From a virus: a stretch of DNA of 64,000 nt. This document shows positions 8,750-57,100 of this stretch, in pieces. The notes below the pieces were generated by a model, which was given only the letters and a program-made list of their open reading frames with translations, did no database searches and was not told the DNA's origin. How positions within the stretch are numbered: position 1 is the first letter of the stretch; every line of letters starts with the position of its first letter. The DNA lies in the IMG/VR virus record IMGVR_UViG_3300018080_000121, positions 1-64,000 of that record; one strand, 5' to 3'. Position numbers and translations under genes: made by a program.

Positions 8750-8757
8750 TTTGTTCT
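8750..8757 (-). promoter_or_regulatory. AGAACAAA motif (candidate late promoter)
   Basis: Exact recurring intergenic octamer oriented toward the downstream gene. Confidence 0.5.
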
Positions 8758-51635: not shown

Positions 51636-51893
51636 ATGAGTGAATTTCGAATTGAGTTAAAGAAAGGGTCTGCTAAATTAGTGGCTGACCGAGAAGAACT
51701 GGTTGGAGTTTCTGAAACACATGAAGGTCTTGTATTCAATTTCAAGGGCGGTATGAATGTTGTAATACATGATGATTATATGTCCAGTTCTGTGAAGAAA
51801 AGGGTTACTAATGCAGATCGTCAATTTGCTGAGGGAAATCTCATTTTTGATATGGATAATCCTCGGGCACCTGTCCTTGTGGACACCACTTAA
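51636..51893 (+). CDS. Hypothetical protein
   Basis: Operon-coupled ORF. Confidence 0.65.
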   Translation: MSEFRIELKKGSAKLVADREELVGVSETHEGLVFNFKGGMNVVIHDDYMSSSVKKRVTNADRQFAEGNLIFDMDNPRAPVLVDTT

Positions 51894-51917
51894 AAATTCT
51901 ATATAAAAATCAAGATC

Positions 51918-51929
51918 TATATATATTAA
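51918..51929 (+). promoter_or_regulatory. TATATATATTAA motif (candidate early promoter)
   Basis: Same motif class as 15266 and 40174; heads the right-arm operon. Confidence 0.5.
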
Positions 51930-52132
51930 TATACAGATAGGAATATTTGTATTTACAGATGTTCCTGAATACCAATCAATTAAAACACAGATAAGGGGAT
52001 AAGTTTGCAATCACATAGTCGATTTCGAAAAACGGGAGGTATGGGTTTCTTCCGTTGTCATGGAAAGGGGGTGGGGCGACTGGGTCGTTGGGCAATTCAG
52101 GTTAACCATTAGGGCAGCAAGAAGGGAACGAG

Positions 52133-52309
52133 GTGGCGAAGAAACAGGACGTGAAGAAGCTGAGAAGAAGAGTCATACATTATTATGAGCAGGCAGCGCT
52201 ACCTGTACTTATTAAAGAAGCGCAGGATCTTGGACTACGAATTCCGAAAGCCATTTTAATGGAATTTGAAAAAACGCGTCAAGATTCTCCAATGCACAAC
52301 CAAGGCTAA
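52133..52309 (+). CDS. 58-aa ORF (not in ORF track)
   Basis: GTG start after AAGGGA; MAKKQDVKKLRRRVIHYYEQAALPVLIKEAQDLGLRIPKAILMEFEKTRQDSPMHNQG. Confidence 0.5.
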   Translation: MAKKQDVKKLRRRVIHYYEQAALPVLIKEAQDLGLRIPKAILMEFEKTRQDSPMHNQG

Positions 52310-52313
52310 ATAA

Positions 52314-52528
52314 CGATAGTGATGACCAACCTCGACGTTGGAGATTGCTATTGTATCGTATATAATGATCGACGCACCCGACTGCGATCGATGGTTATGT
52401 CAAATTTAGACAATGCGAGTCGCTAGCACTTGACTGCTAGGAACTCCATTCTAATCTTATGTCTAATCCTTAATTGGATTAGGTGTTTGATTGGAATGGG
52501 GTTTCTAGTGGTCAAGTGCTGGCGACTC
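52314..52528 (+). ncRNA. Candidate structured RNA: two stem-loops plus a 53-bp hairpin
   Basis: Hairpin 52417-52528 has 42 Watson-Crick pairs, 9 G.U and 2 U.U; stem-loops at 52314-52353 and 52361-52399; no Rfam family recognised by eye. Confidence 0.65.
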
Positions 52529-52588
52529 ACGCCTAAACCGTTTTCCGTTTTTGTCGTTTTTCGTTTGAATATTTTCGGGAGGTGCTTA

Positions 52589-53161
52589 ATGAGATTTGTC
52601 TCGGCTGAGCAATTTATAGAAAAGCTTGGCTGCAGGGTCTATCCGATAACACTGATTAAGTTTATGTTGAATAAACGGAGAATTTTACGTTACATTTCAG
52701 CAGCGGCAGGTGATGACTTTAAAGCAGCTAGCTACCAGGTGGGTCCAGAAGGATGCGAAGTATGTGAAAGTAAGAAAGAACAGAATATTCTATGTAGACA
52801 ACATACATCTATCCATCGTGTTCTTAATACTGACACAGTAGCATTTGATTTGGATACCAATTTGTACTTCTACAAGAATGAGATTTTTCGTATGGTAGGT
52901 AATCGACTTGTAATCGTATATTGTCCACATACAAAATTGATTATGGGTGAGCTTACCGACGATAAAGTACGGAAGGTAATTCCAATCACTGTAGAAGACC
53001 CTAAACTTACCTCCCTTCCTCAATATGCGAATGTTAAGAAATTTATATCTACCGAATTGATGTATAATCATATGAAATGCTGGTTTGACAGGGAGTTTTC
53101 AATAGTTACACTTCCAGATAATGGCGGAAGTAGTAATTGGTGTCTTATTACTAACAGATAG
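52589..53161 (+). CDS. Hypothetical Zn-finger protein
   Basis: SD GGGAGG then ATG 52589; CEVC...CRQH; the TTG 52430 extension is rejected. Confidence 0.7.
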   Translation: MRFVSAEQFIEKLGCRVYPITLIKFMLNKRRILRYISAAAGDDFKAASYQVGPEGCEVCESKKEQNILCRQHTSIHRVLNTDTVAFDLDTNLYFYKNEIFRMVGNRLVIVYCPHTKLIMGELTDDKVRKVIPITVEDPKLTSLPQYANVKKFISTELMYNHMKCWFDREFSIVTLPDNGGSSNWCLITNR

Positions 53162-53174
53162 GAGGATTTAAGAA

Positions 53175-54107
53175 ATGAGTAGTTACGAAGAGTACGCGGG
53201 TCTGGGAGAGACCGGGTATGAAGATCAAGAGCCAGTAAAGCCGGAGGATGAGTTTTTCCACGCCTTGTATATAGCTGGAAACTCAAGAGAAAACCATGCG
53301 GGTATTACTGAGCAATCAGGAAAGTTGCAGATAAGAGGTGTTGAGTATAATCTAGATGCCATAAATATGGTTATTACCCATGTTAAGAAAGTTCTGGTGA
53401 AGTCATCGAGAGATGCAAAGGGCAGAGAGAAACTGGAATGCTTCAGTTATAAAAAAGAGCCAAGACCTCCGTGGCATGGATTTGAAAATCGAGTATGTGG
53501 TTCTAACTCTGCTGAAAGAGCTGCAGATCAATGGTGCCAAGACTGTCGTGAACAGATTATCGTCGCCGGACTTTATTGTGATGCAAAGGGCAAACCGATC
53601 CTCAGCGAGGAGAAGAGACCCATTTTTATCTTTCTCAGGGGTAAGGGTATGAAATACAGTAATGTATCTGAGTACCTTGGGAGCATGTTTAAGTTGGATC
53701 TTGAACCAATGTTCCAACCTGTTACGGAAGAGAGCAAAGCGTTTGAGAAGAAAGTTGTGAATAACAAACGATTTGTTACTCAAATTGGAATGGGAAAACA
53801 ATCCTCGAATTATGGCGATAAAGATGTTTTCACTTTGACCAATACGGTTCAACTCGAAAACAAAAACGTACTTGAAGTATTGAAGATTGCGAAGCAGACT
53901 CAGGATAAATTCAATGAGAAAATGGACTGGACAAGGACTCCATCGACAAGTGGATATTCTCCGCAACAAGCTCCTGTTGACCAGTCCAATGTGATTCCTG
54001 ATTCTGAAGGGGGAGAAGCTCCAAAGCAACAAGAAGCATCTCCCGCTCAGCAACCACAACAAGCTCCAAAAGACGAGACCTTTAATTTTGAAGACATCAA
54101 TTTCTAA
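53175..54107 (+). CDS. Probable ssDNA-binding protein
   Basis: Four conserved-looking Cys, disordered Pro/Gln linker, acidic tail ending FNFEDINF. Confidence 0.55.
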   Translation: MSSYEEYAGLGETGYEDQEPVKPEDEFFHALYIAGNSRENHAGITEQSGKLQIRGVEYNLDAINMVITHVKKVLVKSSRDAKGREKLECFSYKKEPRPPWHGFENRVCGSNSAERAADQWCQDCREQIIVAGLYCDAKGKPILSEEKRPIFIFLRGKGMKYSNVSEYLGSMFKLDLEPMFQPVTEESKAFEKKVVNNKRFVTQIGMGKQSSNYGDKDVFTLTNTVQLENKNVLEVLKIAKQTQDKFNEKMDWTRTPSTSGYSPQQAPVDQSNVIPDSEGGEAPKQQEASPAQQPQQAPKDETFNFEDINF

Positions 54108-54328: not shown

Positions 54329-54715
54329 ATGTCCCTCCCTTCAGAAAGGATGTTAAACATGAAGAGCCCTTGCGATGACTGTGTTGTTAGTATAATGTGC
54401 ACGGCGATGTGTGAGGAAGCTCTACCATATTACAAGAGTCTTGCCACTAAAGACCAAACCTTTGACCATGATCATTATTTCCATCGTGTTGAAAAGTATT
54501 GGGAGGACAAGGCGAGTGGGGTAGAGAGTCCCACGTCAATAAGGACAGAAGATTCTAATATAGAGTTACACCCAAAGGAGAAGAACGATGGCAAGAAACG
54601 TAGAACAAAAGTACTTCGAAAGATTGGACATCGCTGTGCTTCCTATCTCAAAGATAAAGTCCTTAATAAAAGGAGACATCTTGGGAACGCTGAATGCGTG
54701 GAGCAGCGGTCGTAA
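54329..54715 (+). CDS. PCxxC-family Cys-cluster protein
   Basis: SPCDDCVVSIMCTAMCEE. Confidence 0.55.
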   Translation: MSLPSERMLNMKSPCDDCVVSIMCTAMCEEALPYYKSLATKDQTFDHDHYFHRVEKYWEDKASGVESPTSIRTEDSNIELHPKEKNDGKKRRTKVLRKIGHRCASYLKDKVLNKRRHLGNAECVEQRS

Positions 54716-55811
54716 TGTTGATAAACAATGTTTTCATATAGTCGGACCCGCCGGAGTGGGAAAGACTCAAATTTGTGAACAGATACAAATCGAACTTACC
54801 GAAGAATTGAAACAGCCGGTTGAGATGATTATGGTCAAATCACCGGTCCTGTCCAGAGATGATTTCATTATCCCATTTCCGATTGTGGATAATGGAAATA
54901 CATCATTCCGAATGTTATATTCCGACTTCGTTCCGAAAGATCCAGATAGTATTGGACTATTTGTGATCGACGAATTCTCAAGAGGTGATCACTCACTTCA
55001 ACAATTGCTGTGGCAAGTACAAAATGAGTATAAGGTCCACTTGTATGATTTTCCAAAGAAGTGGTTTGTTATCTCTATTGATAACCCTGATGACTCTGAA
55101 TACCAAATGGATACAATGGAAGACGCTGCTGGGTTGAGGAGGCAGCTACATCTGTATACTGAGGTTAGTGTTCCAGACTTCTTGTCCCATGCGATGAAGA
55201 AGGAGTTCCACCCAACAATTATTCAATTTATCCAAGCTCATCCGGACTTTCTCTATGACTTTAATGCTCAGAAGGTTGGCGCGGTATTTTCTAACCCAGC
55301 AAGTTACGAGAAGTTGTCTGACCAAATGTGGAAGTTTGAGTTGGGTAGAGGAATTAAAGAAAGTTACAATGAGATAGAGCCACTTGCTGCTGGATTGCTT
55401 AATTCCAGTAAAGCAAGAATGTTTATCGAGTTCATCCAAGAAGGAAAGGATGTGAACCCAAGAGATATCTTTTATGATTATAAGAAGAAAGTACGTCCGA
55501 TAATCATAAATCTCAAAAGAGAAAAAGATAATGCCACTCTTGGAAATATTATGACTGGGTTCTTGACCTTTGTGACATCGGAACGTCCGACTCATACAAC
55601 AAAGAAAATTAAGGATAATGTCTCTCAGTTTTTGGTTGATATGCCTATTGATACTTCGGCAATCTTTATGTCATCTCTTGATGGTATGGAGAGGACTTCA
55701 CCAGAGTTTGTATACATGGCGGAATTCCATCGAGCATTGTTGGAACATGGTGATACATACCGTGTACACTTTTATGAAAAGGCGATCCAAGCAGCTGAAA
55801 ATGGGAGGTAG
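54588..55811 (+). CDS. MoxR/dynein-related AAA+ ATPase
   Basis: GPAGVGKT, VIDEFSRG, AAGLRR. Confidence 0.85.
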   Translation: MARNVEQKYFERLDIAVLPISKIKSLIKGDILGTLNAWSSGRNVDKQCFHIVGPAGVGKTQICEQIQIELTEELKQPVEMIMVKSPVLSRDDFIIPFPIVDNGNTSFRMLYSDFVPKDPDSIGLFVIDEFSRGDHSLQQLLWQVQNEYKVHLYDFPKKWFVISIDNPDDSEYQMDTMEDAAGLRRQLHLYTEVSVPDFLSHAMKKEFHPTIIQFIQAHPDFLYDFNAQKVGAVFSNPASYEKLSDQMWKFELGRGIKESYNEIEPLAAGLLNSSKARMFIEFIQEGKDVNPRDIFYDYKKKVRPIIINLKREKDNATLGNIMTGFLTFVTSERPTHTTKKIKDNVSQFLVDMPIDTSAIFMSSLDGMERTSPEFVYMAEFHRALLEHGDTYRVHFYEKAIQAAENGR

Positions 55812-55813
55812 GT

Positions 55814-57100
55814 ATGGAACAAAGCGAGAGATTACGAGAATTAGTAGCTGTGATGACATTTCAAAACAGTTACTGGGGTTATCTCTTTGCTAGGATTCGT
55901 CGAGTTGAAGATTCAAATCTTCCATCAATTATGGGTGTTAGTCCAAATTCGGACGGAACTATTTCATTAAGATTTCATCCGGAGTTAGTAAGAGATACAG
56001 ATGATGAAAATTTGAAATGGATCCTTGAGCATGAAGGAATGCATGTATTGAATAAACATATTCCAAGGCTCTTAACTATCTTAGCCAATGAGGTTGATCA
56101 GAAGCGAGAAATGGCTAAGATGGCAGTTTGGAATATTGCTGCGGATTGTGCAGTTAACGTGGCTATTGCAATACCCAAAATCTTAAAGATTGGTGGGAGA
56201 CCATGGACTGGTCAACATCCAGACTTATATGGACTACCAGACGATAGATCGACTGAGTATTATTTCTCCAAACTAATGAGTGAATACGATTCAATGGAGT
56301 CGGAAGGTGGAGAAGGTTCAGGAGAAGATTTGTTTGGTATGGCTGACGATGTAGATGACCATGGCTCATGGGGTAACGTAACAAAACAAGTAACAGATGT
56401 TGGATCTTTAGCAAGAAAGATTGACGGATATACAAAGAAGATAATCAAAGAATCTTTGAAAGCTGCTGGTAGGAATCGTGGTACAATACCCGGTCATATT
56501 ATGGAGCTTATTGAGTCTGCTCTTGAACCTCCAAAGGTCCCGTATTACCAATTAATCCGGCGACTTATAAGAGGCTCAAAAATGAGCAAATTCAAACGAG
56601 CATTCACAAAGGTGAATCGAAAACGAACTTATGTGTTTACAATCGGAGAACTAAATATCCCTCAAATCTCGCCGTTTCCAGGGAGAACCAGAGACTTTAC
56701 ATTCAATATCTGTGTCCTAATTGATACCTCCGGAAGTATGTCACCGGATGATATTAAAGAAGGTCTCTCAGGAGTTAAGAACATAATCGAGAATGATAGA
56801 CATTGTAAGTTGACCGTTCTTGAGAATGATACACATCTCCAAAAAGAGTACGAATGTAAAAAGATTCGTGATATTGATTTTGAAGTAAAAGGTCGTGGTG
56901 GAACTATACTCGAACCAGGACTGAGAAGAGCGAGAGAATTGAGACCGGATGTAACCTTATGTTTTACAGATGGTTACTGTGATGATATTAACACTTTACC
57001 CAGAAAGATACTTCCTCGAAAGTTAATCTGGGCGATCCAACAAAATGGTACAGCTGAACATGTGAATAAAACTGGATACATAGTGAGGATTGAAAAATGA
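55814..57100 (+). CDS. HExxH metallopeptidase-like + vWA domain protein (DUF2201-type)
   Basis: ILEHEGMH, WNIAADCAVN, MIDAS IDTSGSMS, GRGGT, FTDG. Confidence 0.85.
   Translation: MEQSERLRELVAVMTFQNSYWGYLFARIRRVEDSNLPSIMGVSPNSDGTISLRFHPELVRDTDDENLKWILEHEGMHVLNKHIPRLLTILANEVDQKREMAKMAVWNIAADCAVNVAIAIPKILKIGGRPWTGQHPDLYGLPDDRSTEYYFSKLMSEYDSMESEGGEGSGEDLFGMADDVDDHGSWGNVTKQVTDVGSLARKIDGYTKKIIKESLKAAGRNRGTIPGHIMELIESALEPPKVPYYQLIRRLIRGSKMSKFKRAFTKVNRKRTYVFTIGELNIPQISPFPGRTRDFTFNICVLIDTSGSMSPDDIKEGLSGVKNIIENDRHCKLTVLENDTHLQKEYECKKIRDIDFEVKGRGGTILEPGLRRARELRPDVTLCFTDGYCDDINTLPRKILPRKLIWAIQQNGTAEHVNKTGYIVRIEK

Follow-up and report, generated by a model that had tools for sequence, protein, structure and literature searches.

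The locus described here raises the question of what function a very long, near-perfect hairpin could have in the non-coding DNA just ahead of a group of phage replication genes. The hairpin lies in the window, that is, the whole 64,000-nt stretch of DNA that was analysed, which corresponds to the first 64 kb of the 121,292-base IMG/VR record IMGVR_UViG_3300018080_000121 (hereafter G000). Since CheckV rates a record of this size as 39% complete, it belongs to a jumbo phage, which is uncultured and encodes its own multisubunit RNA polymerases. The genes for the RNA polymerase beta' and beta subunits, an M48 peptidase and an SNase-like nuclease are located 5′ of the hairpin. On its 3′ side are found, in order, gene1, gene2, a MoxR-type ATPase with its VWA partner, a two-subunit type II topoisomerase and a helicase. 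A previous reading of the locus from its sequence only (the sequence-only reading) had placed the hairpin at the head of an SSB/topoisomerase operon, and genes for an SSB-like protein and for a type II topoisomerase were indeed present downstream. Between the SSB gene and the topoisomerase genes, positions 54588-57100 hold the MoxR-type AAA ATPase gene and then a gene whose product combines DUF2201 metallopeptidase-like and VWA-like domains.

The hairpin, its neighbours and its relatives

The hairpin comprises a 5′ arm (52417..52469), an apical TTAATT loop (52470..52475) and a 3′ arm (52476..52528), all given on the + strand. A recount of its 53 bp reproduced exactly the 42 Watson-Crick, 9 G.U and 2 U.U pairs around TTAATT that had been described before. 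The 40 basal pairs of the stem were uninterrupted, and all the transition mismatches (9/9) were G.U on the + strand. When folded with RNAfold, the + strand reached -85.5 kcal/mol (z = -15.0), a value that none of 200 dinucleotide shuffles equalled, and the - strand reached -68.7 kcal/mol (z = -10.9). In an ungapped scan of the whole G000 record, the hairpin was the single long inverted repeat found. Because ungapped scans overlook bulged homologues, such as the one in the complete 277-kb relative G002, which has terminal repeats, a gapped strand-neutral alignment was used instead. In the gapped scan of G000, the hairpin ranked first with a score of 71 (runner-up, 34), and the same scan of G002 found its best inverted repeat just upstream of the gene1 homologue (score 54; runner-up, 40). 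The Infernal/Rfam search proposed in the sequence-only reading was run with Rfam release 15, and no family reached its gathering score across the window. When E-values were used, the search returned sub-threshold matches to generic long-hairpin microRNA precursor models, the best one with 47.7 bits versus a gathering score of 101.7. The hairpin is an uncatalogued RNA motif.

The lower stem contains a two-fold symmetric box, CTAGCA-N6-TGCTAG (52423..52440, + strand), whose pairs covaried in a set of 31 hairpin sequences. Local palindromes of at least 5 bp were present in 39% of the 5′ arms versus 21% of shuffled arms, and they were centred about 10-17 nt above the stem base. Covariation of the box was also observed between subfamilies. 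It could fold transiently into a local hairpin or, on the duplex, be bound by a dimeric protein. Further upstream, between the small ORF and the hairpin, two small stem-loops with similar CYCGAC loops were observed at 52314-52399. This segment, of roughly 35-85 nt, looked like an insertion when compared with many relatives, in which a conserved block (...CAATGCGAGT) directly follows a TATA-like element.

Downstream of the hairpin, gene1 (52589..53161, + strand) encodes a 190-aa Cys/His-rich protein, probably a zinc protein, with seven residues (C56, C59, C69, H72, C112, H114 and C164) that were invariant in a 17-sequence alignment. The gene is kept in well over 100 phage contigs, always directly before the gp32-like SSB gene. 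Its product had no Pfam, PHROG or NCBIfam match. The AlphaFold model (pLDDT 93) gave no Foldseek match at E <= 0.001, and a wide VIA search of PDB structures peaked at Z 3.1; this absence of a convincing fold match does not make the fold new. The next gene, gene2 (53175..54107, + strand), encodes a 310-aa protein with a predicted OB fold, a zinc ribbon, weakly matched in Pfam, and a disordered acidic tail that ends in a conserved C-terminal F..FED..F motif. Its model matched RB69 gp32 (Z 6.4 over 149 residues) and T4 gp32 (Z 6.0 over 156 residues), as well as RPA/PrgE OB folds. As these Z values are moderate, gene2 is probably, rather than certainly, a gp32-like single-stranded-DNA-binding protein (SSB).

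Blastn and tblastn searches of GenBank phages returned no relative of the hairpin region, gene1 or gene2, and the RNA polymerase beta subunit found only distant matches of the AR9/phiR1-37/S6/YerA41 type among them (22-32% identity). Searches of viral and metagenome collections with gene1 and gene2 gathered 143 loci, mostly from sediment and hypersaline samples, and 106 of these had distinct upstream sequences. Genome bins contributed five matches, binned with unrelated archaea and bacteria, which suggests mis-binning.

Conservation and strand of folding

A long hairpin, with a median of 40 bp, occupied the same position in about 100 distinct related loci, between the small ORF and gene1 and on the strand of the genes. 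Within the 265 nt preceding gene1, the top inverted repeat scored a median of 40, compared to 15 in 424 control windows from the same loci, whose 99th percentile was exceeded by 81% of the 106 loci. In the 92 hairpins whose pairs were counted, the main stem had a median of 40 pairs (IQR 34-47), with G.U representing 13% of all pairs. The pairing was kept while the sequence changed. All of the 48 well-populated columns of the 5′-arm alignment contained two or more Watson-Crick pair types, and when the 3′ partner was swapped in from another sequence, a canonical pair was formed in only 63% of the cases. Similarly, in a MAFFT-aligned subfamily of 10 sequences, 95% of the cells paired versus 33-47% with slid partners, and double-sided changes were found in 8 out of 21 pairs versus 3.6 in shuffles, a count that none of 500 shuffles reached. 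Covariation among related phages had been named beforehand as a check on the hairpin, and the ~100 homologous hairpin loci with their compensatory pairing indicate that the structure is real, homologous and under selection. In addition, a separately listed metagenome contig (L065) showed the same hairpin with two point differences, which, together with the ~100 homologous loci, contradicts the assembly chimera that the sequence-only reading had considered.

Two alignment procedures behaved differently with this element. When applied to the 31 diverse hairpins, MAFFT misaligned the 3′ arms, and consequently RNAalifold displayed only a local 5′-arm hairpin. A covariance-model search produced matches on both strands because the element is palindromic, with plus-strand scores about twice the minus-strand ones, and its alignment was left out of the pair counts for this reason. 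The giant hairpin is not universal in the wider clade, since it was weak or absent in the most divergent group (L017-L019, L057-L059 and L062-L064), of which L058 has a shorter one. These loci kept gene1, the SSB gene and the T-run that precedes gene1, and they presented an early-promoter-like motif immediately upstream.

The sequence-only reading had proposed, from nine mismatches of one sequence, that selection acts on the folded + strand and not on a DNA palindrome. We counted the transition mismatches on the sense strand of the gene in the strand-neutral alignment of ~100 homologous hairpins and found 528 G.U versus 147 A.C (78%; 52% in the 424 control windows). By locus, G.U exceeded A.C in 91 cases and A.C exceeded G.U in 4, with 8 ties; these loci are related, and the counts are not independent events. 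The direction was the same in subfamilies whose stems have no sequence in common. In G002, where the operon lies on the opposite strand, the bias went with the gene. Per pair type, the frequency of G.U was about five-fold that of other mismatches, compared with about 1.5-fold for A.C, as expected for near-neutral RNA wobble. These comparisons, with 91 loci against 4 among ~100 hairpins, support the proposal and indicate, at the level of sequence, that the hairpin is selected to fold on the sense (message) strand. G.T is the least harmful mismatch in folded single-stranded DNA too, which leaves room for a DNA-level role.

The predicted early transcript

The transcription unit that contains the hairpin is predicted to start at an early-promoter-like motif, TATATATTAA (51920..51929, + strand), 669 nt upstream of the gene1 ATG; the genes on either side of the hairpin are co-oriented. 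Only three copies were present in G000 (51920 +, 90607 + and 105352 -). The motif is similar to the early promoter consensus of the AR9 virion RNA polymerase, AAATATATATTAT-N6-G (PMC5312081). A longer form, cTATATATATTAatta, occurred 15 times in G002, usually shortly 5′ of a ribosome site and start codon, and one of these copies was located ~1 kb upstream of the G002 hairpin. Across loci, sense-strand copies of the motif were enriched within 1,250 nt 5′ of gene1. We regard TATATATTAA as a candidate early promoter of this phage clade. From its copies, enrichment and orientation, we infer that the hairpin is part of an early transcript, with the predicted order promoter, small ORF, hairpin, gene1 and SSB gene.

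The small ORF (52133..52309, + strand), immediately upstream of the hairpin, would encode a basic protein of 58 aa with a KKLRRR... motif; a 52-aa homologue was found at L087:1381-1539. The conserved C-terminal coding part ended 5-110 nt 5′ of the hairpin in most loci. A basic ORF of 52-58 aa with the pattern KKLRRR(I/V)...LIK.A...(I/V)P always preceded the hairpin, and it could be a small regulator. A scan of the region also matched a sigma-70-like promoter, TTGGAG-N17-TATAAT (52338..52366, + strand). This candidate was dropped, as such sites were no commoner than in shuffled sequences and the match was not conserved; in many relatives there is no room for it because the upstream ORF ends 5-60 nt before the hairpin.

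Between the stem and gene1 there is a conserved T(U)-rich tract (52541..52566, + strand) with the core TTTTTGTCG at 52548-52556. Its pattern, 5-7 T followed by G/C-T/G-T/C, was found in 94 out of 95 loci. The T-run was located 39 nt (IQR 35-44) before the ATG and 0-29 nt after the last helix across loci, and this nearly fixed distance to the ATG combined with a variable distance to the helix ties the T-run to the gene start and not to the stem. It is followed by the Shine-Dalgarno sequence of gene1, GGGAGG (52577..52582, + strand), 6 nt before the ATG at 52589. The tract was considered as a general promoter, a candidate that was dropped since TTTTGTTC on the + strand clusters only at this tract; a second cluster, 1.9 kb downstream, corresponded to coding sequence of the ATPase gene. 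The tract was also the reverse complement of another promoter-like motif, AGAACAAA, in about one third of the loci. The idea of an antisense copy of AGAACAAA was dropped because it would apply to those loci only, with no match in G000 and G002; forward copies in the local neighbourhoods were too few for an analysis of co-variation between the two.

The sequence-only reading had noted that the hairpin is far longer than a terminator. This holds, and a terminator scan of 51800-52700 detected no terminator-like site. In an intrinsic terminator, the U-tract lies 0-2 nt from the stem. In the window, 12-19 nt separated the stem from the T-runs, with 19 unpaired nt from the last helix to the first run of at least 5 T, and an intrinsic terminator was rejected for this hairpin. 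Among the loci, 44% had a helix end within 3 nt of the T-run.

Function of the element

The likeliest role of the hairpin is that of a signal for processing, stability or translation in the predicted early message for DNA-replication proteins, probably either as a host RNase III processing/stability site or as the folded half of an operator like that of T4 gene 32. The explanation that we favour, to which we give somewhat less than an even chance, is a putative cis-acting RNA processing/stability element within an early message predicted to be polycistronic. Bacterial RNase III cuts perfect double-stranded RNA from about 20 bp upwards, and the phages T7, lambda and SP82 make use of hairpins of this kind in their early messages. 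The stem described here is well above that length on the sense strand (53 bp in the window; median 40 in 92 relatives). The message would comprise the promoter-like motif (51920), the small ORF, the hairpin, the U-rich tract, the ribosome site, the zinc protein and the gp32-like SSB. A near-perfect double-stranded RNA stem of 40-65 bp would be a substrate for host RNase III and a barrier to exonucleases, so that the message would be cut or punctuated after the small ORF and ahead of the replication genes. The part downstream would then keep a defined, structured 5′ end followed by the single-stranded U-rich tract and the ribosome site, and the stability and translation of the SSB operon would be set independently of the upstream cistron. 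No gene for RNase III or a dsRNA-binding domain was found in the five relatives searched, two of them complete, and any cutting would thus depend on the host enzyme.

Several observations do not fit easily with a processing/stability element. A general signal would be expected at other intercistronic sites as well, and only this site has one. Moreover, processing would need neither the conserved U-rich tract nor the symmetric box, features that hint at a specific binding protein, and the L017-type clade keeps gene1 and the SSB gene without a strong hairpin. When compared to the T7 R sites, the lambda N-leader and sib sites and those of SP82/SPO1, the element resembles them as a long sense-strand stem between cistrons of an early message in which G.U pairs are tolerated. 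It differs in its stem, which has roughly double their length (median 40 bp; 53 bp in the window) with hardly any interruption, in having one site per genome in the two genomes scanned instead of a series, and in the presence of conserved sequence blocks and the symmetric box; cleavage is putative here. The stabilisers of the ompA (E. coli), aprE (B. subtilis) and SP82 leaders are short hairpins with which the primary transcript begins. Like them, the hairpin is a stable structure upstream of a ribosome site that could shield the message from 5′-end-dependent decay, with the difference that it is much longer and internal in most relatives. Altogether, the element falls into a familiar general class, that of structured cis elements in phage early messages, and is unusual in its size and as the single top-scoring site in both scanned genomes. 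Little is known about post-transcriptional gene control in jumbo phages with their own RNA polymerases, and this motif is kept across a large clade of environmental phages and linked to their replication-SSB operon. If it were an RNase III/stability signal, the T7/lambda/SP82 pattern would extend to phages that in other respects do without host transcription. The covarying family of ~100 sequences is in any case a candidate for RNA family databases and for the annotation of the replication module.

Among the other explanations, the chief one is a translational operator, which is possible but doubtful. The hairpin would act as a folded element for nucleation or as a boundary, next to a single-stranded lattice provided by the U-rich tract, and with both together the SSB or the gene1 protein would bind and repress its own message. 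The T4 gene 32 operator consists of a folded element and a less structured A/U-rich stretch longer than 40 nt, which includes the ribosome-binding site and UUAAA/UAAA repeats (PMC535899). The layout found here is alike, with a single folded RNA and then a U-rich leader of ~60 nt with its ribosome site, heading a gene for a gp32-like SSB, as in T4 and RB69 (PMC535899). The T-run stays 39 nt (IQR 35-44) from the ATG whatever the distance to the hairpin, both scanned genomes (G000 and G002) have one element, placed at the SSB operon, and the two-fold symmetric stem box would suit a dimeric binder. In contrast, the hairpin spans ~110 nt whereas the pseudoknot of T4/RB69 has ~28 nt (PMC535899), there are no UUAAA/UAAA repeats, and a 53-bp stem far exceeds the needs of a nucleation site. 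The operator is further weakened because the first cistron is gene1 (52589-53161) rather than that of the SSB: the start codon that would be regulated is that of gene1, and the SSB start, at 53175, lies 586 nt downstream of it. The persistence of the T-run in the hairpin-less L017 clade also speaks against it and implies that T-run and hairpin are separable. An operator and a processing/stability element are compatible with each other, and if the former applied, gp32-type self-regulation would recur with a very different RNA. It is unlikely that the hairpin is instead a docking site for a phage protein, for example the zinc protein, which would recognise the symmetric box, and that it provides a single genome-wide control point coupling early transcription to the start of replication; the SSB operon might then be governed by a new RNA-protein switch, or the hairpin might be a structured primer/origin element read by phage polymerases. 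Rather unlikely, in turn, is an attenuator or terminator for a phage RNA polymerase, in which hairpin and U-run would halt early transcription after the small ORF until read-through. The conserved T-run 3′ of the hairpin, the loci with closely spaced helix and T-run (<=3 nt in 44%) and the location between an upstream cistron and the replication genes agree with it, but the 12-19-nt gap in the window, the empty terminator scan and the spacing of 0-29 nt across loci, with a T-run that tracks the ATG, do not. The ordinary terminators of these genomes are short hairpins, for which a stem of 40-65 bp would be superfluous.

The remaining explanations differ in the molecule that would act. Replicons with an obligatory single-stranded stage, such as M13, G4 and rolling-circle plasmids with sso origins, have complementary-strand origins made of imperfect, strand-specific hairpins that lie in non-coding DNA close to the replication genes, and by analogy the unwound + strand could fold as a replication origin or priming signal. 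Strand-specific selection, one copy per genome in the two scanned, the adjoining SSB, topoisomerase and helicase genes and the AGAACAAA complementarity of the tract in about one third of the loci all accord with such a single-stranded DNA element. We consider it improbable nonetheless: this is a double-stranded jumbo phage in which the folding strand is always the message strand of the flanking genes, and G.U pairs at 13%, ~5 times other mismatches per pair type, fit RNA wobble better than DNA G.T. In addition, the GC skew of G000 and of the complete G002 did not inflect near the hairpin, neither genome has a match to AGAACAAA in its tract, and neither iterons nor an AT-rich unwinding element were evident. 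Small RNAs and a decoy for RNA-sensing defence were among the roles first suggested for the locus; the excised double-stranded RNA would then itself act in trans, either by giving rise to small RNAs or by decoying a host defence that senses RNA or depends on RNase III. So long and near-perfect a stem is unusual in a bacterial system and its predicted early expression would suit counter-defence, but the stem sequence varies freely among relatives (cross-sequence pairing of only 63%), which makes a conserved base-pairing target unlikely. The element lies inside an operon without its own promoter and terminator, and it is single-copy and linked to one gene pair and not to accessory-gene islands. 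As a stand-alone role, small RNA or decoy gained no support, and we hold it to be improbable as well; the nearby host-type promoter is not conserved. Finally, the 42 Watson-Crick pairs amount to an inverted repeat in DNA as well, which could be a double-strand palindrome for protein binding or resolution, a chance repeat or an assembly chimera. These readings are hardly credible, given that a double-strand function leaves the strand asymmetry of the mismatches unexplained, that z = -15 disfavours chance, and that the hairpin recurs in a separately listed contig and, with compensatory change, in ~100 relatives. A template RNA associated with a retron or array was excluded within the sensitivity of the search, which found no reverse transcriptase (PF00078) in G000 or five relatives, two of them complete.

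Two further repeated motifs were observed. The promoter-like AGAACAAA was present in the window at 8757 (-), 9302 (-), 27477, 32188 and 41733 and at many sites in G002. It was located 20-50 nt before the ribosome sites of structural-module genes, co-oriented with them and about 2.5 times over-represented, and it is similar to the AACA core of AR9 late promoters. In G002, 10-mers of the CAACTACAAC type occurred more than 30 times each genome-wide, and they probably belong to a repetitive coding or tandem-repeat region.
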